NCBI GenBank assembly: GCA_018823885.1
Contig: JAHJHG010000006.1
Span: 10,752-74,751, forward strand
Source of the DNA: Patescibacteria group bacterium
GTDB lineage: Bacteria > Patescibacteriota > Microgenomatia > UBA8517
Direction of reading: 5' to 3'
Length of the DNA: 64,000 nt
Positions 5,934 to 48,611 of the stretch are shown piece by piece (position 1 is the stretch's first letter; every line of letters begins with the position of its first letter). Under the pieces are notes generated by a model, which did no database searches, was not told the origin of the DNA, and saw only the letters and a program-made list of their open reading frames with translations. Position numbers and translations under genes: made by a program.

Positions 5934-6389
5934 ATGGTTGGTGTTGTTACATTTTGGGAAACTTTTATCGGAGTAGATAATCCAATCTACATTGGAGATA
6001 TATGGGCTAACACCATAAGACCACTTGGTGGTACCCATTTATTTTATGTTGACCAGCAAGGAATAGGAACACCGAGCATAGATGCTTCTATCGTTTCTAA
6101 AACCTATTCTACTTTCCAAGAAGTATTGGATGACAACCCCGATGCAACCTATGTGTTTCTTGAGGCTGAAAGGAGTATTCCAAAAGGTACCGATTTTACT
6201 TACTTAAAAGACTTTGTTCATCCCAAAGAAGACGTCATTTATGTTTTCGGCAAAGATAGTTCTGATGTGTTCACAGAGAACCTGCCACTTGAAGGAAATC
6301 ATGTTGTATCAATTACCACAAATGATAATCTTGTGCTCTGGTCATTAATAACAGTCGGTATCGTTCTGTATGATAGAAAGGTTAAATAA
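5934..6389 (+). CDS. Hypothetical protein, first gene of the beta-helix cluster; the start is uncertain
   Basis: The ORF runs 5670..6389, but its first 180 nt overlap the convergent 747-aa gene. The first in-frame ATG outside that overlap is at 5934 (151 aa). Its stop, TAA, overlaps the ATG of the next gene (taATGg), which suggests translational coupling. Confidence 0.35.
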   Translation: MVGVVTFWETFIGVDNPIYIGDIWANTIRPLGGTHLFYVDQQGIGTPSIDASIVSKTYSTFQEVLDDNPDATYVFLEAERSIPKGTDFTYLKDFVHPKEDVIYVFGKDSSDVFTENLPLEGNHVVSITTNDNLVLWSLITVGIVLYDRKVK

Positions 6390-20827: not shown

Positions 20828-21805
20828 GTGATTATGATACATTCTTGTTACATGACAATTTTGGCTTACAATTTATCTTCGAACATAAAAGACAATTTGC
20901 AAAAAATTGAAGCCCTTCGACGCCAGATATTACTTCTTCCCATTCCTCCAAAAACAGAGCTCAGACTAAAATGGGAAGCCTCTCTTCAACGAACTTATTG
21001 GTCATTAATTTTGGCAGGTAATCCTCTCAGTAAAACCGATATGGTCAAGCTCCTTTCCACTCAGAGCAAGACAAGGCTAAACCCAGAACAGAAGGAAGTG
21101 GTCAATTACAAAAAGACCCTCGATTTCATAAGAGAGAACTGGCTTATCTCCTCAAAACCCGTAAGTCTCACTACCATAAAGAAACTTTACGATCTTGCCT
21201 GCAAACCTACACTTGGTACCAATACCCGGCTCAGCTCAAATTCAAAAAAACTTCAACCCTTCATTGATTATCTGCAGGCAGGTAAGGAAAGCCCTGTCAT
21301 TCAAGCTGGTATTGCCCAGATATCAACCATTAATGCCGATGCCTTTGGTGAAGGCAACGGCTCTATTGCCAGACTGGTCCCCTATTTGTATTTATATAAG
21401 CATGGATATGATTTCCGAGGGTTGTTGGTATTGGATGAATATTTAAGAAAAGATCTTTTTTCTCTAAAAGAAGCAATTGAAAGCGTTGGCAGAAATAAAC
21501 ACTTAACTCTTTGGCTGGAATATTTCACTAATGGAATTCTCACCCAACTCCAAAGTGCATACAAGATTGCTTCTTCTGCAAAATTCCAAACAGATCTCCC
21601 GGCCGCCTTTTGGAAATTAAATGACAGACAGGTAGACATTTTAAATTCTCTTGAGCAACCGGGGGCGAAAGCTACAAATAAGAAAGTTCAAGAGAAATAT
21701 AAGGTATCTCAAATTACAGCATCTAGGGATTTATCAAAGCTTGTTAAGTTAGGGCTTCTTTTCTCCCACGGTAAAGGTCGCTCCGCTCACTATACCAAAG
21801 TATAA
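20828..21805 (+). CDS. Fic/DOC-family protein with degenerate Fic motif and C-terminal winged-HTH
   Basis: The 325-aa ORF carries DAFGEGNGSIAR at the position of the canonical HPFx(D/E)GNGRxxR; the His and Arg are substituted. The C-terminus (VSQITASRDLSKLVKLGLLFSHGKGRSAHY) resembles the wHTH of the canonical Fic protein at 62815..63879. Confidence 0.55.
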   Translation: MIMIHSCYMTILAYNLSSNIKDNLQKIEALRRQILLLPIPPKTELRLKWEASLQRTYWSLILAGNPLSKTDMVKLLSTQSKTRLNPEQKEVVNYKKTLDFIRENWLISSKPVSLTTIKKLYDLACKPTLGTNTRLSSNSKKLQPFIDYLQAGKESPVIQAGIAQISTINADAFGEGNGSIARLVPYLYLYKHGYDFRGLLVLDEYLRKDLFSLKEAIESVGRNKHLTLWLEYFTNGILTQLQSAYKIASSAKFQTDLPAAFWKLNDRQVDILNSLEQPGAKATNKKVQEKYKVSQITASRDLSKLVKLGLLFSHGKGRSAHYTKV

Positions 21806-24561: not shown

Positions 24562-27513
24562 TTATTTTAACTTTAGGCTCTTACCTTTGTCAACTGCCAA
24601 GTCTGATTTTCCCTTTTTGTTATATAACCAGATTAAACCAATTACTGAGATGGCAATACCAAAATACTCAAGATATTGCGGCCAAAAAACAAAAATTAGT
24701 CTTTGATTGCCTTCTGTTGCAAACCATCCATTGGCCCAGGAATTTACTTTTACGTGTTTTAAATAATCTCCGGAAAACCAAGGAAATACCTTATTGAAAA
24801 CATTGATATCGTCTTCCTCAAACCCAAAACCTAACCACCCCGACTCATATCCCTGACCCAAGACAATAAGTCCTTCCTTTGAGTTTGTTTTTAGGTTGTA
24901 ATAGCCGGTTCCAACCTTCTGGCTCTCAAGAATTTCTATATCATTTCCGACGTTACTATAGCTATCTGGTACAAGCTTTATGCTTTGCAATACCGATATA
25001 GGAACGGGAATGAGTTCAATTCTCTCTAAAATGTTCTCTGAAGAGACACGACCATAAGAGCGGGTTTCCAGATTAAGTGTATAACCCGAACCGTCAATGT
25101 CCTTCGGTAGAATAACAAAGGTTTCATTAAACTTGCCCTCGGGAAGTAGTTCTTCCAAATCCATCCTTTTTGTTTTTGTGTTTTGCAGATAGAACTTGAG
25201 ACTTCTTCCTTCTGTGTTTTCTCCGCTAATTCGCAATACATATCCTTGGGAATAGGAAAGGCCAGGATAACTGAAAAAGTCGCAACTTACTCCCCCATCA
25301 AAGGCTTTATAGGTAATTTTATCTCCATCATTTTCTTTCGAAACAGAACCTATCTTCTTCAAATCACAGTTATAGCCTGCATCAAACCCCCTCCTTAAGG
25401 AAAAATCTTCTTCAATTTTTTCGTCTATCGCCACACTTGTCTTCACTCGTTTCTCATTGTTAAGTTCTATCTTGACAGCACCGCTATTATCTGAGATTAC
25501 TAATTTCTTTGTACCGGAGAAATCTAGGGGCAAACTATAGAAAACAACATTATCTTCCTCAATTTCAACATCGATTCCAGCTCTTCTATCAAAATTTGCA
25601 TACGGGTATGTTAATCCTTCTTTGTCCTCAACATACACACCGTTTTCAACATATATTGCGTTCTTCTCTGAATATTTCGTGTCACCGTCTACTAGAACAT
25701 AAGACTTTGGAGTACTGAGATAATTCTTGTTCTGTCCAAAATCAGTTTCGTAAATTGAAAGAAAACCAAATTCCTGAACAATCTTTGTGTGAGAAGATTC
25801 AGTAAGCATTCTCTTAATCTCGTTTATGCGGAGAATCTCTGCTAATCCCCCGGCATTTAAGATCGATTCATCCAGTAAAAGATAGTTTACTTGATATTTT
25901 CCCAAAGTATTCTCTAAGCCTTCTAAATCATCTGAATAGAGAGCAAAGGAGGCTTCATTGTAAAAACTTTCGTTATACGGACTCCAACGGTCAAATTCCC
26001 GGTCTAGTGTGGGTTGAGTCAAGCCAAACCAGGTAAAACCAGCCCCTTGGTAACCCCAAGAGTTAAACTGCCAACCCCAAAGAGAATGGAGCGGTAATTT
26101 GGCTATCCTAGCTGTTGGATCTTTCTTGTTAAACCATTCAAAAACCTCGAAATATTCATTAGGAATTTCAACTTTCATTGAGGGGCTGATTAAATATCCT
26201 TCAAAAGCAGGCAAGGAAAAGTAAATCAGTGATGCACAAATAATGAAGAAACAACTCACACTCAACTTGATCTTTTTAAGCTTTTCGAGAACAAATTGAG
26301 CAAAAAAGGAGAAGTAAGTAGCCAGTGTAAAAATTAAAAGGATTGAAATCTTGGTAAACGAAAATCTTAATCCCTCCTTGAAGAGAGCTAGATTATCTCT
26401 CAATAAATTAAAGAGTGATTCAAACGGAGGGTTTGCGTTAATCCAAAAGAAAACAGCAACTGCCAAAAGCGGCAGTAATGAAAAAGAATAGCCTGAACCA
26501 CCAAACATGGAAATAATTGAACCCGACACTGCTAACCCAAACAAAGTATATCCAACTATCTCAATACCAGGCTTATTGAGGTGGGTTTTCCATTCATCCA
26601 TCAAGTCAACGAACGTATTTTCGCCTGTATTAAACTCTCTCCAATTAAAAAGAAAGTTTTTCGACAGGGCCAAACTCTCTATATCTCCAAAGGATTTGCC
26701 TTGCAGAAACGCTTCGTCACTAAAAATACGGTGAATTCTTGAACTAGTTACTTCTTTCGAGTGGTTGACAATAAAATACAAATTTGGCAGAAGCCAAAAC
26801 GAATTCAGAAGCAGGGTAAGAAAAACAATGACTATTCCCCTCTTAAACACTCTTCTGCCTTTAATCAGTGAAAGTAAGGCAATATAAACAACCAACGCAC
26901 CTAGATAGACATAGAACAGAGTTGCCGTGTGTGCCATGCCGGCAGCAAACAGAGTTGCTAGGGAAAACCAAATGAGAAACTTTCCTTTTCCTTGCCTAAG
27001 ATACAAAACAGTTAACAAAAACAACCAAGGAAGAGCGGCAAAATGGATAGCAAACATTTCTAAGGGGACATAGAAATGCTGAAGAGTGGTCAAGTTTAGG
27101 ACATAAAAAAGAGCGGCTAAAAAAGCAGATGAACCGAGATAGTGACGCTTAGTAATAGCCAGTAAGTATTTTGAGAAATAATAAATACCTAAAGCGCCCA
27201 ACCCCAAACAGAGAAAGAAAAATACATATCTAACCGCCGAGAGAGGTAAAATCAAAGACAGCAAAAAAACAATTAAAAGTCTCGGAATTTCAGCAATATG
27301 AGCCTGAGAAGCAACCGCCCCAACTCCTTGATGCTCCTGCCAAACGCCAAAAAATGCGCGCTTAAGATAAAGGCCCAAATTGAATTCAGGATGAAGGGTG
27401 TCCCAGCCGGAAAGAATGGTTCCTGGAACATAATTTTTCCAAACCAAAACACCAGTAATCAAAATTAGAAGTACTGGGAATAGAAATTTTTGAAGATGTT
27501 TATTAAATTTCAT
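24562..27513 (-). CDS. Very large polytopic membrane protein with a big C-terminal extracytoplasmic domain (possible GT-C-type glycosyltransferase / YfhO-like)
   Basis: The 983-aa ORF has roughly 14 or more hydrophobic helices in its first 450 aa, followed by a soluble domain of about 500 aa. The family assignment is only an architectural guess. Confidence 0.45.
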   Translation of the reverse strand: MKFNKHLQKFLFPVLLILITGVLVWKNYVPGTILSGWDTLHPEFNLGLYLKRAFFGVWQEHQGVGAVASQAHIAEIPRLLIVFLLSLILPLSAVRYVFFFLCLGLGALGIYYFSKYLLAITKRHYLGSSAFLAALFYVLNLTTLQHFYVPLEMFAIHFAALPWLFLLTVLYLRQGKGKFLIWFSLATLFAAGMAHTATLFYVYLGALVVYIALLSLIKGRRVFKRGIVIVFLTLLLNSFWLLPNLYFIVNHSKEVTSSRIHRIFSDEAFLQGKSFGDIESLALSKNFLFNWREFNTGENTFVDLMDEWKTHLNKPGIEIVGYTLFGLAVSGSIISMFGGSGYSFSLLPLLAVAVFFWINANPPFESLFNLLRDNLALFKEGLRFSFTKISILLIFTLATYFSFFAQFVLEKLKKIKLSVSCFFIICASLIYFSLPAFEGYLISPSMKVEIPNEYFEVFEWFNKKDPTARIAKLPLHSLWGWQFNSWGYQGAGFTWFGLTQPTLDREFDRWSPYNESFYNEASFALYSDDLEGLENTLGKYQVNYLLLDESILNAGGLAEILRINEIKRMLTESSHTKIVQEFGFLSIYETDFGQNKNYLSTPKSYVLVDGDTKYSEKNAIYVENGVYVEDKEGLTYPYANFDRRAGIDVEIEEDNVVFYSLPLDFSGTKKLVISDNSGAVKIELNNEKRVKTSVAIDEKIEEDFSLRRGFDAGYNCDLKKIGSVSKENDGDKITYKAFDGGVSCDFFSYPGLSYSQGYVLRISGENTEGRSLKFYLQNTKTKRMDLEELLPEGKFNETFVILPKDIDGSGYTLNLETRSYGRVSSENILERIELIPVPISVLQSIKLVPDSYSNVGNDIEILESQKVGTGYYNLKTNSKEGLIVLGQGYESGWLGFGFEEDDINVFNKVFPWFSGDYLKHVKVNSWANGWFATEGNQRLIFVFWPQYLEYFGIAISVIGLIWLYNKKGKSDLAVDKGKSLKLK

Positions 27514-33090: not shown

Positions 33091-33209
33091 GCCCAGCAAT
33101 GAACTATTTTCGCATAGAGTTGCCCCTATACTATCGTCGCCGCTGGTGTGTTTTACTTTCCTGTTCGGAATGGGAAGGAGTAGGACCACACCGCTAAAAT
33201 TACTAGGCT
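33091..33209 (-). rRNA. 5S ribosomal RNA
   Basis: The reverse complement reads GCCTAGTAATTTTAGCGGTGTGGTCCTACTCCTTCCCATTCCGAACAGGAAAGTAAAACACACCAGCGGCGACGATAGTATAGGGG...GCGAAAATAGTTCATTGCTGGGC. This matches the 5S consensus (CCGAAC...GAAAC, terminal helix I). Confidence 0.7.
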
Positions 33210-33289
33210 ATTTTTATGGTTAATAGATTTTCTCTATTAACCACATATGTTAATGTTTTTTGTTCTCTGAAAACTGAAGGGAATGGGTC

Positions 33290-36511
<3,222 letters not shown>

Positions 36512-36538
36512 TTTCCCTTCAGATGTCAAAGAACAAAG

Positions 36539-36613
36539 TGGACCTGACCGGGCTCGAACCGGTGACCTCTACATTGCAAATGTAGCGCTCTTGCCAGCTG
36601 AGCTACAGGCCCG
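36539..36613 (-). tRNA. tRNA-Ala (anticodon TGC)
   Basis: The reverse complement reads GGGCCTGTAGCTCAGCTGGCAAGAGCGCTACATTTGCAATGTAGAGGTCACCGGTTCGAGCCCGGTCAGGTCCA. It has a G3:U70 pair and the anticodon loop TTTGCAA. Confidence 0.85.
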
Positions 36614-36825
36614 AAAAATAATAATATTAATTTTTAAACTAAAAAACCGGCCTTGAAGCCGGTTACATAAAAGAAGCGTATAAACTATCTAGCCACTATC
36701 AATGCCCCCAAGGGCTTGTCTTTGGTTAAATGTTGAGCTTCTCATAAAGTAACTTGCCTCAATCGGCAGAGACTATTATATATAGTAAGAAACAAAGAGT
36801 CAACAGAGGAGAAAGTAGAAGTGTG

Positions 36826-36898
36826 TGGGTCCGGATGGGATCGAACCATCGACCTCTTACTTATCAGGTAAGCGCTCTAGCCACTGAGCTACGGACCC
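36826..36898 (-). tRNA. tRNA-Ile (anticodon GAT)
   Basis: The reverse complement reads GGGTCCGTAGCTCAGTGGCTAGAGCGCTTACCTGATAAGTAAGAGGTCGATGGTTCGATCCCATCCGGACCCA. The anticodon loop is CTGATAA. Confidence 0.85.
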
Positions 36899-36990
36899 TG
36901 GAGCAACCAATAATTTACCATAAATTAGCCTTAAAAACAAACTATTAATATCTGCTACATTTTCAGAAAGCTACCATATATAATAGTTGT

Positions 36991-39210
36991 ATGACGAACT
37001 TAACAACGCTTCTTTTAAAACTTCCACGAAATACTGAAGTTACACCTGAAGCAGCTCAAACATTCCTCTCTGCATTAACACAAATAAATTCAGTTTCCTC
37101 TTTAAGAAAATTATTAGGCACAAAATCACAAGCCTTAGCTTTGGAAATTGTGCTTTTCGATCAACAAATAAGGTTTCAAATAACTTGCGACCGCGACCTG
37201 GTTCCTTTTCTTAAAACACAAATTCAGTCTAACTATCCCCTTGTCCTAATTGAGCAAACACAAGACCCATTAGTAAATAAAAGGCTTGAAATAAAAAAAC
37301 TCTGTCTTGCTAAGGGAAGTTATTACCCAATTGCAACTTTCGAATCATTTCAAGACATTGACCCTCTCTCCTCTGTTCTTTCTGTTTTATCAAAAGGCAA
37401 TCCTGATGAAGTCGGCCTTGTTCAGTTCGCCTTGGAGGCAACAGGTTCTTCTTGGCAAAGAAAAGGGGCTCTTTATGCAGAAAGAGGTACAAAGAATGAA
37501 GATGGTTCTTATTCCCCAAGATCGGACGCAAACATAATAACTGAGAAAATTTCTTACCCAGGTTTCAAGGTCACAATAAGGCTTGCTGCAAACACGAAAC
37601 AAACCCTTAGAGAACTTATATCTAGCTTTGGAGTATTCACAAGAGCTGATGGAAATAGGCTCTCATCGAAGAAAACTTCACAGCTAAAGAAAAAGTCTGC
37701 TCTAGCTTGCCTTTTACAAAGAAAGGTCGTAGATAACCAAATATTAAACATTCAAGAACTGGCAACTATTTGGCATCTTCCAAGCGATAAGATAAAAACC
37801 ACCTCCATTGCTTGGGGAACGTCTGTTCTTTCAGAGCCCCCCGAAAATTTACCTATCGCAATCGATAAGTCAGAAGATGAAAAAAGGGAAATAAACTACT
37901 TTGCCAAAACTCATTTCAAAAACAAAGAAACAATATTTGGTATTGAGACTCCAGACAGAAGACGCCACATATGGACCTTAGGAAAAACAGGTACCGGTAA
38001 ATCCACTCTAATTGCCAACATGGCCATCGATGATCTCAAGAAAGGTCGTGGTTTAGCCGTTATAGATCCCCATGGAGATCTTATTGAAATACTTCTTGAT
38101 TATATTCCGAAGAACAGAATTAACGATGTCATTTACTTCAATCCCGCAGATAGCCAACCTCCAACAATTAATCCTCTTGAGGTTAGAACTCGTGAGGAAG
38201 CAGAACTGGCTGCTTCCGGTCTTCTTTCAATATTCACAAAAATTTGGGCCAATGTCTGGTCCGCACGGATGGAATATATCTTAAGAAACTCATTCCTCAC
38301 TTTAGCGCAAACTCCTAACTCTACTTTGGCGGATGTTTTGAAACTTCTGGCAAATAGAAAATTCAGAGATCAAATCGTAGAAAAAATTGATGACCCAAAT
38401 CTTGTCCACTTCTGGAAAGAAGAATTCGATAAAATGCCGGAAAGACTTCAAAAGGAGGCTATTTCCCCTATTCAGAATAAGGTAGGCCAATTTGTCCTAT
38501 CACCTATGATTCGCGAAATAATCGGTCAACCAAAAGGTTCTTTTAGAATTGACGAGATCATGGATGGCGGAAAAATATTCCTTGCCAATTTATCACAAGG
38601 AAGAATCGGAGAAGATAATGCTAATTTACTTGGCGCCATGTTGATAACGAAAATCCAACTTGCGGCCATGCATCGAGTCGAGATAAGGGAACAGGAAAGA
38701 CGCGATTTCTATCTCTATGTCGATGAGTTCCAGAATTTTGCCACCACATCATTTATAAAAATCCTCTCAGAAGCCAGAAAATACAGACTTAACTTGATGC
38801 TTGCAAACCAATATATTGCTCAAATTCCCGAAGAGGTTCAAAAAGCAATATTAGGAAATATCGGAACAATGATTAGTTTTACCGCCGGTGCGGAAGACGC
38901 GCAAATTCTTCAAAAAGAGTTTTCAGAAGTCTTTACCGAAAACGACCTTGTCAACCTATCACGCTTCCAAGTGGCCATTAAACTTACTATAGATGGGCAA
39001 TCCAACAGACCCTTCTTAGCTCATACTCTGCCTCTTCCTGTCTCAAGAAACCAGAACAGGCCAAAAGTTATTACGGCCTCAAGGGAAAGATGGTCAAAAA
39101 GAGAAAAACCACAACAAGACCTGGAACAAAAGCCATATACACCTAAACAGAAACCATACACACCCAGACATCGACAATACCCACGTAGGAGCAAGTCCCA
39201 TCAAAGATAA
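36991..39210 (+). CDS. VirD4/TraG/TraD-like coupling-protein-type ATPase (FtsK/HerA superfamily) with a basic Pro-rich C-terminal tail
   Basis: The 739-aa ORF has a Walker A motif (LGKTGTGKSTL) and a Walker B motif (FYLYVDEFQNFAT), followed by an ANQY..Q segment typical of TraG/TraD C-terminal domains. It sits inside the 16S-23S spacer on the strand opposite the rRNAs. Confidence 0.6.
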   Translation: MTNLTTLLLKLPRNTEVTPEAAQTFLSALTQINSVSSLRKLLGTKSQALALEIVLFDQQIRFQITCDRDLVPFLKTQIQSNYPLVLIEQTQDPLVNKRLEIKKLCLAKGSYYPIATFESFQDIDPLSSVLSVLSKGNPDEVGLVQFALEATGSSWQRKGALYAERGTKNEDGSYSPRSDANIITEKISYPGFKVTIRLAANTKQTLRELISSFGVFTRADGNRLSSKKTSQLKKKSALACLLQRKVVDNQILNIQELATIWHLPSDKIKTTSIAWGTSVLSEPPENLPIAIDKSEDEKREINYFAKTHFKNKETIFGIETPDRRRHIWTLGKTGTGKSTLIANMAIDDLKKGRGLAVIDPHGDLIEILLDYIPKNRINDVIYFNPADSQPPTINPLEVRTREEAELAASGLLSIFTKIWANVWSARMEYILRNSFLTLAQTPNSTLADVLKLLANRKFRDQIVEKIDDPNLVHFWKEEFDKMPERLQKEAISPIQNKVGQFVLSPMIREIIGQPKGSFRIDEIMDGGKIFLANLSQGRIGEDNANLLGAMLITKIQLAAMHRVEIREQERRDFYLYVDEFQNFATTSFIKILSEARKYRLNLMLANQYIAQIPEEVQKAILGNIGTMISFTAGAEDAQILQKEFSEVFTENDLVNLSRFQVAIKLTIDGQSNRPFLAHTLPLPVSRNQNRPKVITASRERWSKREKPQQDLEQKPYTPKQKPYTPRHRQYPRRSKSHQR

Positions 39211-39480: not shown

Positions 39481-40086
39481 ATGAAGCGTTGGAAAATTGT
39501 AAGTTTGTTGGCTGTTTTCGCTCTTCTGATCACCGCTGTACCAGTATTTGCCATGGCAGAAAACGGAGCTCCATGGACCGGAGATCCAGATCCATATGCC
39601 TGTAACGTCTATCAGGACTGTTTCTACACAGTAACTGTCTGCATCGATGGTACAACCTACGAAGTAGGTATCTACTACGACCCAGCGACTCAAACCGCTG
39701 CGTACATGGAAGCAGACGCCTTAGGCTGGTCGGATATCGTCCTTACAATCGGCGCCTGTCCATATGTATGCGAAGTGAGACCGCTTTACCGAATGGTCAC
39801 TCTGGTTGATAACGACGCACCTGACTGGTATTTGTATGATGGTCGTTGTTACATTATCATGCACGAAGACGGAACTGTCCCCTCAGTTGATCGCCAGGCC
39901 GAAGTTTGTAGTGTTTGCGAGCATCCTGATTTCATCTATGAAGGAGATGGTCCCGCTCTTTACGACTCCTATGTCGGTGTGGATTGCTATGGCAACTACG
40001 TCTATGCAGATCCTCTGTGGGATCCTGAATGGATCAATCTGGATCCTGACAACATCTGTCACGAAGAATCCTGCATTACCAAATAG
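39481..40086 (+). CDS. Secreted cysteine/aromatic-rich hypothetical protein (short paralog)
   Basis: The 201-aa ORF has a signal peptide (MKRWKIVSLLAVFALLITAVPVFAMA) and 14 Cys. Its C-terminal module (CSVCEHPDFIYEGDG...YDSYVGVDCYGNYVY) resembles the C-terminus of the 695-aa neighbour. The GC content is visibly higher than in flanking DNA. Confidence 0.5.
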   Translation: MKRWKIVSLLAVFALLITAVPVFAMAENGAPWTGDPDPYACNVYQDCFYTVTVCIDGTTYEVGIYYDPATQTAAYMEADALGWSDIVLTIGACPYVCEVRPLYRMVTLVDNDAPDWYLYDGRCYIIMHEDGTVPSVDRQAEVCSVCEHPDFIYEGDGPALYDSYVGVDCYGNYVYADPLWDPEWINLDPDNICHEESCITK

Positions 40087-40455: not shown

Positions 40456-42543
40456 ATGAAGAAACTTTTTGTTATCGCATTGACACTGTTACTATTGTTA
40501 GTAGCAGCGGTCGCCGTATCAGCGGCCACTCCCCTCCCAGTATGTCCAGAAAGTGGAGGCGGCTGGACCAGGGTTAATAACGGAAATTGGACTGAAGTCA
40601 CGGGCGCGACTAACTACTGCTTTAAGTTCGGGAATGGTGCAGCGCCTGGAGCCGGACCATCATGCGCACCAGAACCTGCGCTCTACGGCTCGAGCTACCC
40701 GGGAGCAACACCCGCAAGTCGGTGTCCCCTAAATCACTGGGCATACTTTGTTCCCCCGGAACCTCAGTGTGGACCGAACGAGTGGTCAACTGAAGAGGGG
40801 TGTATACCCAAAACCGACATCTGTCATGCAACCGGTAGTTGGATTCACCCATTCCAACTGATCTCCCCTTCCAATATCGGCATTCTCATGGGGCATGTTG
40901 GTCCAGGCCATCAAAGTGGTGAGGACATCATCCCGCCGATCCCCTTCTATCTGCCAGCAGGTCAAAATTGGAATACGGTTGGGCAGGCTATCTTCAACAA
41001 CGGATGTGAATTGCCTGAGCCTCATGACTACGAGCTTGTGTTTGACTATCGTAACGAATGCGATGGTAATAATTACTATCGCATCATGCTGACGGATTTT
41101 GGTCAGTATGTCACCACTCTCTATCACAGTGGTTACTTCGTATGGTCTGAGCCGTTCTTGCTCGAAAACAAAACGTTTGGACCGTTTGATCTTGGCGAGT
41201 TTGGGACATTCCCTGCTGTAACGCTGGATGAACCCTTGGATTGCCAAGTCGAACATGAACTTGCGTTCGTGTATACGAATAAGTGCGTCGGTTGGTCCTA
41301 TGGGTATGTACTCGATGGCGTCGAAACAATCATCGCCTCTGGTGAATGGGTTGATCCATATGGTGAGCCGGAAAAGATCTTTGTAAGTTTTGAGGTCTTC
41401 CTACCCGCAGGTGAGATTGCAAATCGCAGTCCCATCTTCGGCCCGTGGTACCTTGTGGAACCAGCCGATTGCCAGATCTTCCGCACGTACAAGGCTCATC
41501 AAGCATATCTTGCGGATAGTTGCGAGGGAATCCATCGAGTGATCAACTTGTACGAAGGCCCAGCCAGTGATCCGTATGATGTATTGGTTGGCACTCTCTA
41601 CAACGAGACGGTTCTGTTCTCGGATCCTTTCAATCTCGAGACCATTCCGGCCGTCACCGTTGATGTCCCGGCAGCGTATGGCCCAGACTACACCTTCGCC
41701 GCTATGGACGAACCATCAACCTGTTACAGCACCTGTGATCTGACCACTCCGGTGGTACAAGATCCTGTTTGGAACCCGTGGTCACCATGGGTATACAATC
41801 CTATCAGCGGTCTTGAGGAAAGTTTCCACACAGGAACACAGACAACCTTATTCATGGACAGTGTCGATGAAGGGTATGTCTGTGGCTCATCGGTTGAAGA
41901 GTTATTCGAATCTCGAACACGGGAAGTGGATTACTCGCTAACCGTCGTTGGTTCCGGAGACTGCTTCAACTGGGAGTACGTCCCTGCTTTCACCAAGGGT
42001 GGTGAAATGACCGTCGTTGGCGATCTGACAGGCGAATGGCTGGACATCTATGGGCCTGAAACCGCTCCAGTACCAACCGTCACTGTTGTATGGCCAAGCG
42101 GCTATGCTCTGACAGTTACACCTGAAGCCGTTGTCAAAGATGTTGGCTGTATTCAATGCCGAATCACGCCTTACTACCCACAAGCGTCATACCATGACGC
42201 AGCTGCTCCTGGCGTTTACTGGCAAGGTCCATTCGGTCTAGGAGCTGGTGTGTGTAGCGTTATTCATCCTGAAGGCCAAGTACCTTCAGCTGAGCGCGTA
42301 ACCACGATCTGCTCCCTCTGCCCCGATGTGTTTGAAGGTGGTTATATCTATCAGGTTAACCACATGTTCTATGACGGCTGGGTCTACAAGGTCCAGTGCT
42401 ACGGTCAAGAACCTCACTACACGTACATGGGGTACAACTGGGACGCATACGTCAGAATTGGCGAATACACCACAGAAGGTGAACGCCTCTCCTGCCGCGT
42501 TCAAGGTTGTGCGGACTGGATTCACGAAAACATGGTGGAATAG
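40456..42543 (+). CDS. Secreted cysteine/aromatic-rich hypothetical protein (long paralog)
   Basis: The 695-aa ORF has a signal peptide (MKKLFVIALTLLLLLVAAVAVSAA), many Cys, Trp, Tyr and Pro residues, and a C-terminal module (CSLCPDVFEGGYIYQVNHMFYDGWVYKVQCYG...) related to the 201-aa protein. The GC content is higher than in flanking genes. Confidence 0.55.
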   Translation: MKKLFVIALTLLLLLVAAVAVSAATPLPVCPESGGGWTRVNNGNWTEVTGATNYCFKFGNGAAPGAGPSCAPEPALYGSSYPGATPASRCPLNHWAYFVPPEPQCGPNEWSTEEGCIPKTDICHATGSWIHPFQLISPSNIGILMGHVGPGHQSGEDIIPPIPFYLPAGQNWNTVGQAIFNNGCELPEPHDYELVFDYRNECDGNNYYRIMLTDFGQYVTTLYHSGYFVWSEPFLLENKTFGPFDLGEFGTFPAVTLDEPLDCQVEHELAFVYTNKCVGWSYGYVLDGVETIIASGEWVDPYGEPEKIFVSFEVFLPAGEIANRSPIFGPWYLVEPADCQIFRTYKAHQAYLADSCEGIHRVINLYEGPASDPYDVLVGTLYNETVLFSDPFNLETIPAVTVDVPAAYGPDYTFAAMDEPSTCYSTCDLTTPVVQDPVWNPWSPWVYNPISGLEESFHTGTQTTLFMDSVDEGYVCGSSVEELFESRTREVDYSLTVVGSGDCFNWEYVPAFTKGGEMTVVGDLTGEWLDIYGPETAPVPTVTVVWPSGYALTVTPEAVVKDVGCIQCRITPYYPQASYHDAAAPGVYWQGPFGLGAGVCSVIHPEGQVPSAERVTTICSLCPDVFEGGYIYQVNHMFYDGWVYKVQCYGQEPHYTYMGYNWDAYVRIGEYTTEGERLSCRVQGCADWIHENMVE

Positions 42544-42753: not shown

Positions 42754-42790
42754 AAACGCAAAAACCCGCTTTAAAAAAGCGGGTTTCTTT
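42754..42790. terminator. Bidirectional rho-independent terminator (AAAAACCCGCTTTAAAAAAGCGGGTTTCTTTGTTTT)
   Basis: A perfect 8-bp GC-rich stem is flanked by an A-tract and a T-tract. It is located about 120 nt beyond the 16S 3' end on the minus strand and about 210 nt beyond the 695-aa gene on the plus strand. Confidence 0.6.
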
Positions 42791-42910: not shown

Positions 42911-44372
42911 GAAAGGAGGTGATCCATCCGCTCCTTCCAGAACGGATACCTTGTTACGACTTAATTCTTGTCGCTGGTCTCACCTTCCCCCGATTCAATC
43001 GAGGTTCGGGTGCTTCCAACTTCACTAACTTGACGGGCGGTGTGTACAAGACCTGAGAACGTATTCACCGCGGCTTGGCTGATCCGCGATTACTACCAAT
43101 TCCACGTTCATGAGGGCGAATTGCAGCCCTCAATCCCCACTGAGAAGCCGTTTGATGGGATTAGCTCCGTGTTACCACTTGGCAACCCATTGTCGGCTCC
43201 ATTGTAGCATGTGTGTAGCCCTGGACATAAGGGCCATGCTGACTTAACGTCGTCCCCGCCTTCCTCCCGAGAATGACTCGGGCAGTCCCGTATGAATATT
43301 CAACATACGGCGAGGGTTGCGCTCGTTACCCCACTGAAGGGAACACCTCACGACACGAGCTGACGATAGCCATGCAGCACCTGTTCTAGTACCTTCGAAA
43401 GAGTCACCATTTCTGGTGATGTGCAACTAGTATGTCAAGTCCAGGTAAGGTTCTTCGGTTCGTCTCGAATTAAACCACATGCTCCACTGGTTGTGCAGGT
43501 CCCCGTCAATTCCTTTGAGTTTTAGTCTTGCGACCGTACTCCCCAGGCGGCTCGCTTAACGCGTTAGCTTGCGAGACGGAAAAATAAATTCCCCATCCCT
43601 AGCGAGCATCGTTTACGGCTAGGACTACAGCGGTCTCTAATCGCTTTCGCTACCCTAGCTTTCGTTCCTCAGCGTCAAGAAATGCCTAGTTACCCGCCTT
43701 CGCCCTTGGTGTTCTTGTCGATATCAACGGATTTCACCCCTACACCGACAATTCCAGTAACCCCGACATTCTTCAATTCTGGTAGTATTATGCCCCTTCC
43801 CGAGGTTAAGCCCCGGTCTTTGAAACATAACTTACCAAAAAGCCTACGAACTCTTTACGCCCAATAAATCCGGACAACGCTTGCACCCTACGTATTACCG
43901 CAGCTGCTGGCACGTAGTTAGCGGGTGCTTATTCTCCAGTCGGTCTCCCTTCTGGCAAAAGAGGTTTACAACCCTAAGGCCTTCATCCCTCACGCGGCGT
44001 CGCGGCGTCAGACTTTCGTCCATTGCGCACGATTCCCGGTTGCTGCCACCCGTAGGTGTAAGGCCCGTGTCTCAGTGCCTTTCTGGGGGAACACGCTCTC
44101 ACGCCCCCTACCCGTCGTAGCCTTGGTAGGCTATTACCCTACCAACAAGCTGATGGGCCGCAGGCTCCTCCCTCGGCGGGCAGTTACGCCCTTTCATCCT
44201 TGGATCTTATGCGGTATTAACTACTCTTTCGAGTAGGTATTCCACACCAAGGGGTAGATTCCTACGTGTTACTCAGCCGTTCGCGACTTACTATCCGAAG
44301 ATAGCTCGTTCCACTTGCATGCCTAAGGCACGCCGCCAGCGTTCGTCCTGGGCCAGGATCAAACCCTCAAAT
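42911..44372 (-). rRNA. 16S ribosomal RNA
   Basis: The 3' end reads ...GGATCACCTCCTTTC (complement at 42911-42924) and the 5' end reads GAGGGTTTGATCCTGGCCCAGGACGAACGCTGGCGGCGTGCC. The internal conserved blocks (GTGCCAGCAGCTGCGGTAATAC, etc.) are present. Confidence 0.9.
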
Positions 44373-44477
44373 AGTGACGAGTTTTGAACCTAAACATGCA
44401 TAAGCACGAATAAGTATTCGTCTTACGCTTCCAGTCATATTTTGATTGTCAAAGTGCGCACATTTTTGAGACTAAAA

Positions 44478-44530
44478 AACCGCCCAGATGGACGGCTTCA
44501 CAAGGCTTTTTAAGCCATCTGGTATTTCGT
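44478..44530 (-). terminator. Rho-independent terminator on the minus strand upstream of the 16S promoter region
   Basis: On the minus strand the sequence reads CCAGATGG-CTTAAAAAGCCTTGTGAAGCCGTC-CATCTGGG followed by CGGTTTTTT. Confidence 0.45.
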
Positions 44531-44613
44531 CTTACATCATGTGCATCGTTATTATAACACACGATTCAATGGGGTCAACGAGAAGTAAATAATTGTTTTT
44601 GCAGCCCTCCAAC

Positions 44614-44690
44614 CCTACTTCTTTTCCATCACTTTGGTCATCATAAACTCGAGAAGATCGCTCCTAGAGATTAAATAGACACTATATTTT
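44614..44690 (-). repeat. Orphan copy of the 3' end (last 24 codons plus stop) of the HTH gene at 45106..45291
   Basis: The copy is about 80% identical over about 75 bp to 45108-45183. Its reading frame is conserved (...KYSVYLISRSDLLEFMMTKVMEKK* against ...KYGVYLVSRSDLLEFMMSKVMEER*), but it is preceded by a stop only 10 codons upstream. Confidence 0.6.
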
Positions 44691-44730
44691 ATTCAGCAAT
44701 AACGAAGTTGACTTGTCCTATTTTCTTTCA

Positions 44731-45045
44731 TTAAACCTCCCTTAACTCCATCCCCTCTTTATGAAGCCACTCGGCAAGAAAATCTGATACTTTAGTTCCG
44801 GAAATACCTTTCTTGGTATAAATTTGTATTACAGAAGGATTTTGTCCAGAAATTATCTGGGCATTTCTTTCAAAATTTCCTAAACCCTCTCTTAATCTTT
44901 CGGGAAGATTGTCCGTAAACTCAATAACACATCTATCACTGTCAACTGGAACTATTACTAAATCGATTTCTCCTTCTATTAACAGCTGAGGAACATCTTT
45001 CCAAGGTACATTCGTAGAATATCTTATTCCTTCTTTTTCAATCAT
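44731..45045 (-). CDS. Hypothetical protein, located between the duplicated HTH-gene 3' ends
   Basis: No motif was recognised in this 104-aa ORF. Confidence 0.4.
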   Translation of the reverse strand: MIEKEGIRYSTNVPWKDVPQLLIEGEIDLVIVPVDSDRCVIEFTDNLPERLREGLGNFERNAQIISGQNPSVIQIYTKKGISGTKVSDFLAEWLHKEGMELREV

Positions 45046-45105
45046 ATAATAATCGTGTAATTACTTTCCTGCAAGATAAACTAGACAAAATTAAAGGCTT
45101 TCAAT

Positions 45106-45291
45106 TCACCTTTCTTCCATCACTTTAGACATCATGAATTCGAGGAGATCACTCCTGGAGACTAAATAGACGCCGTATTTACCGGCCAGTTTTGTTGCAC
45201 GAAGTTTTTTCTCTCTAATCCAACGCCTAATCGTATCAGGGTGTTTTTTGAGATATTTGGCAGTTTGTTTAACTGTCAGATAATCCTTCAC
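45106..45291 (-). CDS. Excisionase/MerR-like helix-turn-helix DNA-binding protein
   Basis: The 61-aa ORF reads LTVKQTAKYLKKHPDTIRRWIREKKLRATKL, which is typical of excisionase-family HTH_17 domains. Confidence 0.6.
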   Translation of the reverse strand: MKDYLTVKQTAKYLKKHPDTIRRWIREKKLRATKLAGKYGVYLVSRSDLLEFMMSKVMEER

Positions 45292-45325
45292 AATACCTTA
45301 GTATATCATAATGTATCAGTGGTAC

Positions 45326-45943
45326 CTAGGGAGCACAATTAGGCCAAATAGAAGCATGGCCTATTGAATAAGCATAGGCAGCCGTTTGAACTGCCTCTTC
45401 GGCATTAAGACGCAAATCAATATCAGTATCCTCCCCCATTAATAGTCTGTATTTAATCCATGTATTGGGAGAGAACTGAAAAAGACCAGCATAATTGAGT
45501 TTTATCGCCAAAGGATTAAACCCAGATTCACAAACAGCCAGATGTCTCAAAACATTAGGGTCAACACCATATTGACCAGCAAATCTTTCAATAAATCCAT
45601 GAATTTCCTCAGAACTGAAAACAGGTTGCTGAATTGGTGTAGGACTAGGTGAAGGTGTTGAAGTGGGCTTTGGTGTTTGAGTTGGTTCGGAAGTTGGTGA
45701 AGGCGTAGGGCTAGGTGTCATCACTAAAGAAGAATCATGAGTTAAACTACCATCTCCGGCAACATAATATTCTGAAAGAACCTCACCTTTTAAAAAAAAA
45801 TCCTCCCCAAAAAAACTCATACCAAAATACCCAAGCAAGAAACCCATCAAAAGAGGGGCAACAAGAAATATTTTCCTGAACATATTAACGCCCCTCATTA
45901 AACCACAATGTAAATAGATTAGAAAGCGAGCAGAGTGTTTCAA
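45326..45943 (-). CDS. Secreted lytic transglycosylase (SLT domain) with Pro/Thr/Ser-rich linker
   Basis: The 205-aa ORF has an N-terminal TM/signal segment and a PTPSPTSEPTQTPKPTSTPSPSPTP linker. Its SLT signature reads LAVCESGFNP...YAGLFQFSPNTW (catalytic E-S and GLxQ-like motif). Confidence 0.6.
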   Translation of the reverse strand: MKHSARFLIYLHCGLMRGVNMFRKIFLVAPLLMGFLLGYFGMSFFGEDFFLKGEVLSEYYVAGDGSLTHDSSLVMTPSPTPSPTSEPTQTPKPTSTPSPSPTPIQQPVFSSEEIHGFIERFAGQYGVDPNVLRHLAVCESGFNPLAIKLNYAGLFQFSPNTWIKYRLLMGEDTDIDLRLNAEEAVQTAAYAYSIGHASIWPNCAP

Positions 45944-46253: not shown

Positions 46254-48611
46254 TTATTTCAACCTTAGGGACAACTCTCTCTTAAGAGAATTTAAATTTT
46301 GTAGCGTCTCTGAAATTTCAAGCGTTCTCCACTTCCATTGTTTGGCCTTATTCAGGTTTTTGTCTGACACAATATTGACAACAGAACACACAGAATACTT
46401 TCTGTCATTAAATCCTATCTTTATATATTCATCTTGATCTTCTTGGTCAAAGTCAAAACCAACTAATATATGTACGCCATTTTTTTCGATAAGGGTATAT
46501 CTATCTTTAAAATCATAATGTTCCTCAATAAAGTGATAAAATGGAGCAAGCTTCGGATCGAGGTCCCACATAATTCCTCCAACGTTCTCTTCCATCGAGT
46601 GTGCACTAGAGTCAGAATTTTCTTCAACCACTTTTGTTGTAATCTCAAAAAACACTTTGTTTCTCAAATTATATAAAATGTCCTCAATTCTCTCTGAATA
46701 ATTTTGTACCTGACTTTTCCTTTCGGCTCGAGGTTTTTCCTTCTTAATTTTGTTTGCCAAAGCTAAATACATAGTATGCTCATCTACATATTCTTTAAAT
46801 GAACTAAGCCCAGAAGAATCAATCTGGGATTTTGTCTTATCAAGTTTCTCAAACCAATCCAAAAATCCTTCTTCATATTTTGTTTTTAAAGTCTTTAATC
46901 TCACGCTCTCAAGGTCGGGAAAACTAAATTTATCCTTTAAAGAATAAATACACACACTTGTTTCAAGTTCTTTGCCGTCTTTATCTGTGGCTTTCCGTTT
47001 TTCCTCTTTAGAATCAATTATTCCGTACATTTCATTCCTTTCAGCCCTCAATAGAAAATCCTCAATTGCACCTGCAAAATCTTGTCTTGATGCCTCATCA
47101 AGATCATCCAATCTTAATCTTTTTTGTATATCTTTTGGCAATATGCCCAAGAAATCGTCTTCTTTTATCTCGATTGATTTGTTACTTTGTAAAATTCCGC
47201 ACACCTCACGCATAACCAAATATAATTTTTCATTGGTCTCGTATTCTCCTGGGTATAATTTTTCATCGTAAGATGCATTTAAAAACACCTGTAGGGCGGC
47301 ACAGGTCTCCCAGTCCTCTGGTATATTGCCCTTGGATAATCCCTCAGCAGAATACACTTTTACCGAAGGTGTTTCATCCTTGTTAAAATTAATGAAATTC
47401 TCTATCAGATTATGTGTGTCAAAAATGTGGTTTTTAGCTTGCCAACTAACAAAAGATATAAATTTACTAAAAGACTTTGCATACTCCTCCGCAATATGGC
47501 CTTTTACGTAACTCATTACAATATCTTTAATGTCTGCATAATACATTGGCGAAAGAAACAGTCTGTCTGTGAACAAAGTGTACACATTTGAATACGGGTC
47601 GGTTTTCCGTTTGTTTTCTAAAATATGAAAAAAGTCATCGCTTCCCACAAATACAAAGATTGAGTTTGATAAAGTAAACAAATTTTTTAGCGACTTAACA
47701 ACTTTGTAAATTGTATGGGTGGCAACAGCATCCTCATTTAATTCTTCTGCGCTATCAAGTTTGTCCAATTCATCTATCACAAAAACAACTTTGTAGTCCT
47801 TGTTCAGCTCCACAAGCACTTGATTTAAACCAAACTCAATTGTATCGGATGACAAGTCGTATTTCGCGATACCTGTTTTTCCAGTTTTTTTATCTATTCC
47901 TGATTCTTCTCCTTCAACCGATCCATTTGTGAATGTAAAATTCAAATTAACGTTTAACAGAATCAAAATAAAGGCAGCTCCAATCAAAAACAAGATAATC
48001 ATTACCCAAGGATTAGGATTTGGGTAAAATCTAGTCAACATGTCCGCAAGCAGCCAAAAGCCAAAACCACCACTCAACCATTTCAAAAATAACTTCACCG
48101 ATGATCCTATGTCCCACTTGATGATGGTTTCCTGTGTTTCTTTTTCTTCGTGATATGAAGATTGTTTTTTAACTAACTCACTTATATTTTTATCTTTGAA
48201 CTCAGAATAATAACTTTTTTGATATAAACCTTCCAATATATCTTTTGTGTTTGACTTAACGCCTTTCCACTTGCTTTTATTTAGTGTCAAATACAAAGAT
48301 CGAGTAAGAGAATTTAATACTTTTTTCCTAATACTACCCCCTTTGGCAATACTTGCTAGTGTGGCCTCAAGAACAATTAATGACTTTTTGTTTTTTGAGT
48401 GTTTTATCTGTCTTAGAACCTCTTTCACGAATGACGTTTTGCCAATTCCCCTGGCTCCTCCAATCAATACACATGCGGCCTTACGATTTAAAATAACGTT
48501 TTTGAATTTTTGTATCAATTCGTCCCGACCTTTAAAAACGCTTTTGTCACTATCTACATCAATAGGGTCCCGATAATTTGTTCTTATATCAAACTTAAGT
48601 ATTGTTGCCAT
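46254..48611 (-). CDS. KAP-family P-loop NTPase (Walker A and B split by inserted transmembrane helices)
   Basis: The 785-aa ORF has a Walker A motif (IGGARGIGKTSF) near residue 50. TM helices (GFWLLADMLTRF...VMIILFLIGAAFILILLNVNL) lie around residues 190-235, and a Walker B motif (VVFVIDELDKLD) near residue 290. A large C-terminal domain follows. This is the KAP NTPase topology. Confidence 0.65.
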   Translation of the reverse strand: MATILKFDIRTNYRDPIDVDSDKSVFKGRDELIQKFKNVILNRKAACVLIGGARGIGKTSFVKEVLRQIKHSKNKKSLIVLEATLASIAKGGSIRKKVLNSLTRSLYLTLNKSKWKGVKSNTKDILEGLYQKSYYSEFKDKNISELVKKQSSYHEEKETQETIIKWDIGSSVKLFLKWLSGGFGFWLLADMLTRFYPNPNPWVMIILFLIGAAFILILLNVNLNFTFTNGSVEGEESGIDKKTGKTGIAKYDLSSDTIEFGLNQVLVELNKDYKVVFVIDELDKLDSAEELNEDAVATHTIYKVVKSLKNLFTLSNSIFVFVGSDDFFHILENKRKTDPYSNVYTLFTDRLFLSPMYYADIKDIVMSYVKGHIAEEYAKSFSKFISFVSWQAKNHIFDTHNLIENFINFNKDETPSVKVYSAEGLSKGNIPEDWETCAALQVFLNASYDEKLYPGEYETNEKLYLVMREVCGILQSNKSIEIKEDDFLGILPKDIQKRLRLDDLDEASRQDFAGAIEDFLLRAERNEMYGIIDSKEEKRKATDKDGKELETSVCIYSLKDKFSFPDLESVRLKTLKTKYEEGFLDWFEKLDKTKSQIDSSGLSSFKEYVDEHTMYLALANKIKKEKPRAERKSQVQNYSERIEDILYNLRNKVFFEITTKVVEENSDSSAHSMEENVGGIMWDLDPKLAPFYHFIEEHYDFKDRYTLIEKNGVHILVGFDFDQEDQDEYIKIGFNDRKYSVCSVVNIVSDKNLNKAKQWKWRTLEISETLQNLNSLKRELSLRLK

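Follow-up and report, generated by a model that had tools for sequence, protein, structure and literature searches.

A coupling protein-like ATPase encoded between the genes for 16S and 23S rRNA of a Patescibacteria bacterium belongs to the widespread, functionally uncharacterized DUF8128 family

A 64,000-nucleotide stretch of the genome of a Patescibacteria group bacterium (contig JAHJHG010000006.1 of assembly GCA_018823885.1, positions 10,752 to 74,751; hereafter the window) encodes, at 36991..39210 on the + strand, a 739-residue ATPase that resembles the type IV coupling proteins (T4CPs) of the VirD4/TrwB type. The protein is T4CP-like by sequence, VirB4-like in architecture and without a transmembrane helix, and it is an ordinary member of a known, functionally uncharacterized Patescibacteria family. 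The reading favored here, with somewhat more confidence than doubt, is that it is a cytoplasmic ATPase with its catalytic motifs intact, placed in the VirB4/VirD4 branch of the FtsK-HerA superfamily and drawn from a family widespread in Patescibacteria, and that its most likely partner is a type IV secretion system (T4SS) encoded elsewhere in the genome and serving a purpose other than conjugation.

The open reading frame (ORF) is complete and includes the DUF8128 domain; it begins with an ATG at 36991 and its stop codon ends at 39210. The start codon is conserved, insofar as homologues align from residue 1, and the product is 100% identical to an annotated NCBI protein on contig JAHIWH010000012.1 of the Patescibacteria metagenome-assembled genome (MAG) GCA_018816285.1. 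A preliminary description of the region, made from the sequence alone, had reported this ORF together with Walker A, Walker B and ANQY motifs and a Pro/Lys/Arg-rich tail, and all of these were found in place. The Walker A motif, or P-loop, GKTGTGKST (residues 331-339; 37981..38007, + strand) aligns to GATGTGKS of TrwB, and the Walker B motif YLYVDEFQNF (residues 574-583; 38710..38739, + strand) aligns to LWLFIDE of the same protein. The ANQ motif (residues 605-607, within ANQY at 605-608; 38803..38811, + strand) lies at the end of the strand that follows Walker B, modeled at residues 600-606, and would provide a polar residue of the sensor-1 type, as in FtsK/HerA-class ATPases. Across 47 aligned homologues with 66-93% identity, residues G331, K332, T333, G334, T335, G336 and K337 of Walker A, V577, D578, E579, F580 and Q581 of Walker B, and A605, N606 and Q607 were all invariant, which points to a functional gene maintained by selection and not to an ORF that arose by chance.

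The structure of the ATPase was predicted with AlphaFold2 (pLDDT 81.5). The model contains a RecA-like core and, between Walker A and Walker B, an all-helical insertion at residues ~401-526 (38191..38568, + strand), for which DSSP assigned helices from 401-418 through 520-526. In the model this insertion is the counterpart of the all-alpha domain of TrwB, and the TrwB sequence alignment flanks it on both sides. The spacing of ~240 residues between the two Walker motifs is explained by this inserted domain, as in TrwB.

Profile hidden Markov models led to a similar assignment. PF10412 (TrwB_AAD_bind) matched residues 323-633 with an E value of 2.8e-12 and 46.7 bits against a Pfam cut-off of 20.5, PF12696 (TraG-D_C) scored 30.3 bits against a cut-off of 22, and PF01935 (DUF87/HerA) also scored above its Pfam gathering score. 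No solved structure other than that of the coupling protein TrwB matched significantly in sequence, either with the single query or in a profile search of PDB sequences. The original proposal of an FtsK/HerA-class, T4CP-like ATPase is thus borne out, with one qualification: of the three profiles named with it, PF10412 and PF12696 exceed their thresholds, whereas PF02534 is not matched by this protein, although it is matched by a split-form orthologue, ORF2 of the Nealsonbacteria locus L090. The best NCBIfam matches were TraD, a VirD4-like family and CedD, all sub-threshold and far below the equivalog cut-offs. In fold, the motor resembles VirB4 and TrwB to the same degree; this alone assigns it to the VirB4/VirD4 branch of the FtsK-HerA superfamily, and the sequence profiles favor a T4CP.

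Two features of VirD4/TrwB-type T4CPs are therefore present, namely a nucleoside triphosphate (NTP)-binding domain with intact Walker A and B motifs and an inserted all-alpha domain, and profile scores above curated thresholds. Two others are not. No transmembrane segment was predicted in the ATPase, in which the maximum 19-residue Kyte-Doolittle hydropathy is 1.06, and so the N-terminal transmembrane anchor is missing; nor was linkage to a relaxase/Dtr locus or to a T4SS (mating-pair formation, MPF) locus seen in the window or among the recurrent neighbors of 86 family loci. Known T4CPs of this type (R388 TrwB, F TraD, DotL, Cag-beta) have an N-terminal transmembrane domain, whereas the ATPase of the window has in its place a domain of 290 residues similar to the N-terminal domain of VirB4. 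It further differs from them in lacking, by Pfam scans of the window, a linked relaxase or T4SS, in being a chromosomal core gene and not the cargo of a mobile element, and in carrying a basic tail and not a conserved partner-binding one.

The N-terminal domain, DUF8128 (PF26449; residues 1-294; 36991..37872, + strand), has an alpha/beta fold like that of the VirB4 N-terminal domain and ends in a conserved linker, W-H-L-P ... E-P-P-x-N-L-P. This gives the ATPase a VirB4-like architecture of N-terminal docking domain plus motor, as opposed to the transmembrane domain plus motor of canonical VirD4. The domain had first been described as non-standard, a view that does not hold: for the identical protein, and for each of the 120 homologues listed, the precomputed domain annotation includes DUF8128. 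A phmmer search with residues 1-305 against 1.84 billion cluster representatives matched 746 representatives, 213 of them at E <= 1e-10, and in the best 150 of the 746 the domain begins within about the first 100 residues. Within the literature library searched, no paper on DUF8128, on its VirB4-like fold, or on the membrane-anchored, anchorless and split forms described below was found.

Given the VirB4-type fold of this domain, the protein could be a genuine VirB4, the assembly or energizing ATPase of a Patescibacterial T4SS that T4CP profiles have mis-scored, but we consider this very unlikely. Neither VirB4 Pfam family, PF03135 (CagE_TrbE_VirB) or PF19044 (P-loop_TraG), matched at E <= 0.1, while T4CP families passed their thresholds and the split-form orthologue matches PF02534 (VirD4/TraG); the NCBIfam VirB4_plasma match was weak, at 19.7 bits against a cut-off of 590. 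The gene does not occupy the position of a VirB4 in an MPF cluster, since no VirB3-like gene is adjacent and it is flanked upstream by tRNA-Ile and downstream by cysteine-rich ORFs. VirB4 ATPases such as R388 TrwK and T. pseudethanolicus VirB4 differ from it in these respects, the window ATPase matching no VirB4 Pfam family and not standing beside VirB3, VirB6 or VirB8. Patescibacteria moreover appear to carry separate, genuine VirB4 genes: in the portion of a published census table covered here, VirB4 (PF19044) is encoded beside TrsD, VirB3, VirB6 and VirB2 and the T4CP elsewhere (PMC12102498), and Ca. Southlakia epibionticum has a VirB4, SEML1_0008, distinct from both of its T4CP-like proteins, SEML1_0293 and SEML1_0142 (PMC10633639).

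The C-terminal tail (residues 701-739; 39091..39207, + strand) is predicted to be disordered, with pLDDT < 50 for residues 706-739, and rich in Pro, Lys, Arg and Gln; it ends the protein in the sequence ...KPYTPKQKPYTPRHRQYPRRSKSHQR and has a net charge of +9 over residues 701-739 and +11 over residues 691-739. It had been singled out as noteworthy. Among the 47 close homologues, however, the tail varies from 4 to 111 residues, has no conserved sequence and is usually basic when long, so it is a lineage-specific, fast-evolving, low-complexity appendage; that it might bind nucleic acid is speculation. Another case of a variable C-terminal appendage in the DUF8128 family is the additional treble-clef zinc finger, PF23477, at the C-terminus of ORF2 of L090 (11033-12667), a split-form motor from a Nealsonbacteria genome that is complete.

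More than 7,400 homologues of the ATPase were found, and almost all of the 120 listed have the architecture PF26449 + PF10412 + PF01935 + PF12696. When each GTDB species was scanned through a single genome, 597 candidates were confirmed, from which 80 loci were kept; full-length homology to the window protein, at 35-64% identity, was observed across these 80 species representatives. They include the Microgenomates-group lineages Shapiro-, Levy-, Roizman-, Ames-, Gottesman- and Collierbacteria, and, among other named lineages, Saccharibacteria and Dojka-, Uhr-, Falkow-, Peregrini-, Moran-, Buchanan- and Nealsonbacteria. The family is chromosomal and probably vertically inherited.

Three gene architectures were distinguished within the family. 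In the first, which is the Microgenomates type and includes the window protein, DUF8128 and the motor are fused and no transmembrane helix is present. In the second, found in Saccharibacteria-labelled, Dojkabacteria and Peregrinibacteria MAGs, the fused protein carries an additional N-terminal extension of 40-100 residues with a strongly hydrophobic helix. In the third, which occurs in one clade, the protein is split between two adjacent genes, of which ORF1 encodes the helix and DUF8128 and ends right after EPPxNLP, and ORF2 encodes the motor, with 50-55% identity to residues 301-739 of the window protein, its own ATG and often another reading frame. These split forms were considered as artefacts of stop-codon recoding and this was rejected, as the stops are mostly TAA in addition to the separate ATG and frame of ORF2. 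When the motor domains were ordered by neighbor-joining, the anchorless fused form and the split form each made up one largely contiguous block with three exceptions, probably attributable to a truncated contig or over-extended ORFs, and the helix-bearing fused form made up the remaining blocks. From this distribution the family looks ancestrally membrane-anchored, with the anchor lost in the lineage of the window. Small ORFs upstream of the gene in loci L006, L013 and L010 were examined as separate membrane anchors and rejected; they are mutually unrelated and absent from the window.

The absence of conjugation genes near the ATPase was the feature that had first drawn attention to it. Pfam scans of the 43 ORFs of the window confirmed that no relaxase, VirB4, pilin or integrase is recognizable there, although the large ORFs at 6389-8500, 9128-12076 and 24562-27513 have no Pfam match at all, so that absence is not proven. 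This orphan state is not special, however. According to a census of 3,035 Patescibacteria genomes, 2,918 encode VirD4-like T4CP homologues; of the 5,713 homologues counted, only 148 lie close to virB4 (Quinonero-Coronel et al. 2025, PMC12102498). The same census reported only 109 relaxases in all, found a chromosomal monoderm-type T4SS in about 80% of Patescibacteria, and raised explicitly the exaptation of t4cp genes (PMC12102498). Judging by Pfam content and gene arrangement, and by the portion of the census table covered, we infer that the DUF8128 family corresponds to these T4CP homologues, which number about two copies per genome (PMC12102498). Some of those in this portion occur as pairs one gene apart (PMC12102498), as in loci L047 and L048 of the present analysis; the portion contains no row for the present genome or for the Woesebacteria homologues (GCA_018816285, KKU63479 and others). 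The orphan state and the DUF8128 domain are accordingly family-wide and already catalogued.

A second published data set concerns the epibiont Ca. Southlakia epibionticum. Its protein SEML1_0293 (921 residues) has the same NCBI product name and the same PF10412 + PF12696 + PF01935 content as the window protein and is non-essential by transposon sequencing (Wang et al. 2023, PMC10633639). The second T4CP-like protein, SEML1_0142, is essential, as is the sigma-like gene directly upstream of SEML1_0293, SEML1_0294, which is named RpoS (PMC10633639). From its name, Pfam trio and gene arrangement, SEML1_0293 is the probable Saccharibacteria counterpart and would be an ortholog of the window protein. 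Both it and, in the portion of the table covered, the census T4CP homologues resemble the window ATPase in product name, in Pfam trio and in lying far from virB4. By description, as opposed to sequence, the window protein differs from SEML1_0293 in its length of 739 against 921 residues, in lacking an N-terminal hydrophobic helix and in lacking an upstream sigma-like gene.

How such an ATPase would work can be proposed from its relatives. It would assemble as a ring, presumably a hexamer, in which NTP hydrolysis would drive the engagement or translocation of a macromolecular substrate, either nucleic acid or protein. In R388, the N-terminal domains of VirB4 connect one protomer to another, are embedded in the membrane and make contacts with VirB3 and VirB8 (PMC12857230), and because of these contacts the VirB4-like N-terminal domain of the window ATPase may, by analogy, mediate dimerization, docking to a membrane partner, or both. 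Such docking would stand in for the transmembrane anchor that canonical VirD4 has. For a T4CP-type motor with its membrane attachment ascribed to a separate small membrane protein there is a precedent in pIP501 TraJ, which is proposed to be anchored by the small protein TraI (PMC12857230); pIP501 TraJ and Streptomyces TraB are, however, plasmid conjugation proteins with known DNA substrates, and no conserved anchor gene stands beside the ORF of the window. The most likely partner would be a chromosomal monoderm-type (MPF-FATA-like) T4SS located elsewhere in the genome, and because relaxases are nearly absent from the phylum its role would be other than conjugation. A role in DNA uptake or protein export in reduced genomes, suggested at the outset, is possible.

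Several observations weigh against this T4SS-linked reading. The 64-kb window contains no T4SS gene, which leaves the proposed partner a candidate, and the ATPase has neither a transmembrane helix nor a conserved adjacent membrane partner. The fold gives no separation of VirB4, VirD4 and DptH. Finally, the non-essentiality of SEML1_0293, set against the essentiality of the T4SS genes of the same organism (PMC10633639), makes it less likely that the protein is obligatory for that T4SS.

The main rival explanation, which we regard as unlikely but deserving of weight, is that the protein is an exapted nucleic-acid motor independent of any T4SS, acting in the processing of incoming DNA after transformation, in DNA or RNA handling, or in chromosome maintenance. 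FtsK, HerA and Streptomyces TraB are precedents for motors that work without a T4SS. Clustering of the neighbors of 86 family loci revealed a housekeeping context in agreement with such a role, in which TopA was found no more than a few genes away at 13 loci, and DprA at nine; further housekeeping neighbors were SecD/F, SecA, PGK, MreB, PBP2 and Def, and no T4SS component was recognized among the recurrent clusters. Directly upstream of the DUF8128 gene and co-oriented with it in 24 of the 86 loci, all of them non-Microgenomates, is a gene for a putative DNA-binding protein of ~340 residues that starts with Sigma70_r4 and has HARE-HTH close to the C-terminus (for example L048 8758-9786 and L090 8710-9687, and also L047), which likewise fits a nucleic-acid motor. 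In the complete Nealsonbacteria genome (L090) the order is SecA - DUF1614 - Sigma70_r4/HARE-HTH - ORF1 - ORF2 - PGK - DHH - MurJ. In Saccharibacteria-type loci two paralogues flank this gene, and the sigma-like SEML1_0294 stands in the corresponding place directly upstream of SEML1_0293. The gene is absent from beside the DUF8128 gene in Microgenomates; an ORF of the window at 20828-21805 (325 residues, winged helix-turn-helix) was considered as its counterpart and rejected for want of BLASTP similarity. The basic C-terminal tail, the dispensability of the probable Saccharibacteria counterpart beside an essential T4SS, the exaptation raised by the census authors (PMC12102498), and the example of TraB, a T4CP-like ATPase that works without T4SS subunits (PMC12857230), also speak for a nucleic-acid motor. 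On the other hand, the VirB4-type N-terminal domain and the membrane helix of most lineages point to the context of a membrane machine, linkage to TopA or DprA is confined to the smaller part of the loci and these two genes are often paired in any case, and no nuclease partner such as NurA is adjacent.

The similarity of the motor to HerA-type proteins also raises the possibility of an anti-phage defence NTPase of the DptH, HerA or mad8 type, which appears highly improbable. The matches to PADLOC mad8 and HerA cover only the generic motor domain, those to HerA in NCBIfam and PADLOC being marginal, and the adjacent genes include no nuclease, Sir2, methyltransferase or DptF/G partner. Unlike defence islands, the gene is near-universal and retains a conserved core synteny across the phylum. 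Compared with HerA, FtsK and DptH, the ATPase has no HAS-barrel N-terminal domain, no NurA, Sir2, DUF4297 or DptFG partner and no FtsK gamma domain, and its sequence profiles prefer T4CPs. PHROG family phrog_5156, of unknown function, matches the ATPase at 7e-74 (residues 184-688), gp156 of Bacillus phage G (JN638751.1 91543-93114) is 24% identical to residues 185-682, and SPO1-like Bacillus phages carry the motor part only; the phrog_5156 and phage G matches indicate distant relatives of the DUF8128 family in large Firmicutes phages. Low weight was given to the defence and phage readings that such matches (PADLOC mad8/HerA, PHROG 5156, phage G gp156) might invite.

The position of the gene, which had been described as inside the rRNA spacer, is correct in its geometry but not in the sense of a transcribed spacer. 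The - strand carries 5S rRNA (33091-33207), 23S rRNA (33287-36508), tRNA-Ala (36538-36612) and tRNA-Ile(GAT) (36825-36898), followed, 5.9 kb from the 23S block, by 16S rRNA (42912-44374), the rRNAs having been located with Rfam and the tRNAs with ARAGORN. The ATPase gene, divergent from tRNA-Ile and 92 nt from it, fills with two further + strand ORFs the 5.9 kb between tRNA-Ile and 16S, antisense to the rRNA genes. A consensus scan placed strong promoter-like sites on the - strand ahead of 16S (44578-44551) and between tRNA-Ile and tRNA-Ala (36803-36775), and a terminator-like hairpin with an 11-bp stem just past the 3' end of 16S (42762-42786). The hairpin, AAACCCGCTTT...AAAGCGGGTTT, has A-rich and T-rich runs at its sides, lies between 16S and a convergent ORF of 695 residues, and is probably a bidirectional terminator. 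Since both rRNA blocks have promoter-like and terminator-like sites of their own, the arrangement is one of unlinked 16S and 23S genes, which are reported to be common in Patescibacteria (bioRxiv 10.1101/705046). A group I intron lies inside the 23S gene (34307-34536, - strand; Rfam), and several LAGLIDADG homing-endonuclease ORFs were seen in the 23S region of relatives (L006 4591-6353; L013 865-6122).

Several independent relatives, ~70% identical in the ATPase, preserve the order sortase - RadA - S1 - 5S - 23S - tRNA-Ala - tRNA-Ile - ATPase - variable ORFs - 16S. In L006, L008/L009 and L010, the loci covered by the rRNA scan, 16S and 23S were confirmed by Rfam; L012 and L013 have flanking genes and tRNAs in common with them. 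Among the 80 species-representative loci, at 35-64% identity, only two (L014 and L016) have an rRNA gene within 10 kb of the ATPase gene. A family-wide functional link to rRNA was for this reason rejected; the position between 16S and 23S is lineage-specific synteny and incidental.

A perfect TATAAT hexamer (36979..36984, + strand) precedes the ATG of the ATPase gene by 6 nt, with no Shine-Dalgarno sequence; it was not called in the promoter scan, a -35 match being absent. The hexamer recurs in L009 with the same spacing and in L012 at 8 nt, and the mRNA may, from these sequence features, be leaderless. A 16-nt inverted repeat, 94% complementary, brackets tRNA-Ile (36772-36787 / 36972-36987), and each arm contains a TATAAT-like box, one being the -10 of the promoter-like site of tRNA-Ala/23S and the other the box 6 nt before the ATPase ATG. 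In the window and in L010 the tRNA-Ile gene is on the - strand, but in L006, L009, L012 and L013 it is on the + strand and runs in the direction of the ATPase gene, which suggests that this segment has been recurrently inverted.

The two ORFs downstream of the ATPase gene, both on the + strand, encode cysteine-rich proteins with signal-like N-termini, of 201 residues with 11 Cys (39481-40086) and 695 residues with 25 Cys (40456-42543), and neither has a match in Pfam, NCBIfam, PADLOC or PHROGs. They were rejected as conserved operon partners, since each has its own promoter-like site and only one homologue, of the 201-residue ORF, was found: from relative to relative, other hypothetical genes occupy the interval that separates the ATPase gene from 16S, and the 201-residue protein alone recurs (42% identity, L008/L009, beside 16S). 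Beyond 16S lie a small HTH_17 gene (about 44400-45300, from NCBI gene calls), an SLT lytic transglycosylase (45326-45943, - strand) and a KAP-family P-loop NTPase of 785 residues (46254-48611, - strand). L012 has other genes between 16S and its tRNA-Gln/Lys/Glu cluster, and the region just beyond 16S may be another variable slot.

These variable surroundings bear on a further explanation, that the ATPase serves as coupling protein to a conjugative element, or to the remnant of a plasmid, that has integrated between the rRNA genes. In its favor could be cited the T4CP Pfam matches, the variability of the downstream ORFs and their guanine-cytosine content of 0.45-0.50 against 0.38-0.40 (the ATPase gene itself being at ~0.39), and the presence beyond 16S of genes for SLT, HTH_17 and KAP-NTPase. 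We nevertheless find this explanation barely credible. Neither a relaxase nor an integrase nor a VirB4 came up in the Pfam scans of the window, synteny of the gene and its flanks is retained in relatives with ~70% identity, the family is near-universal and chromosomal, the ATPase has no transmembrane domain, and relaxases are rare in the phylum (PMC12102498).

Elsewhere in the window, the ORF at 24562-27513 on the - strand encodes 983 residues with ~10 predicted transmembrane helices in the N-terminal 430, has no Pfam, PADLOC or PHROG match, and adjoins the sortase gene, an arrangement conserved in identical contigs.

What had appeared to be an orphan coupling protein in an rRNA spacer is thus the normal state of a near-universal family, and the apparent oddity is removed. 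The VirB4-like fold of DUF8128 and the three gene-architecture forms are new here and are modest additions. A bolder reading, which is doubtful though less so than the VirB4, defence and conjugative-element explanations, is that the DUF8128 family is a third, Patescibacteria-specific branch beside VirB4 and VirD4, an evolutionary intermediate with a VirB4-type N-terminal docking domain, originally led by a single membrane helix, on a VirD4-like motor, and that it powers nucleic-acid import or export at the host interface and not conjugation; if so, it could serve, for example, the uptake of host DNA or RNA by nucleotide-auxotrophic epibionts. At about two copies per genome, the family is among the most widespread uncharacterized ATPases of the Candidate Phyla Radiation. 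Its VirB4-type N-terminal fold and its membrane-anchored, anchorless and split forms lead to testable hypotheses on docking to a membrane machine, and these could help to explain why one T4CP-like paralogue of S. epibionticum is dispensable and the other essential.

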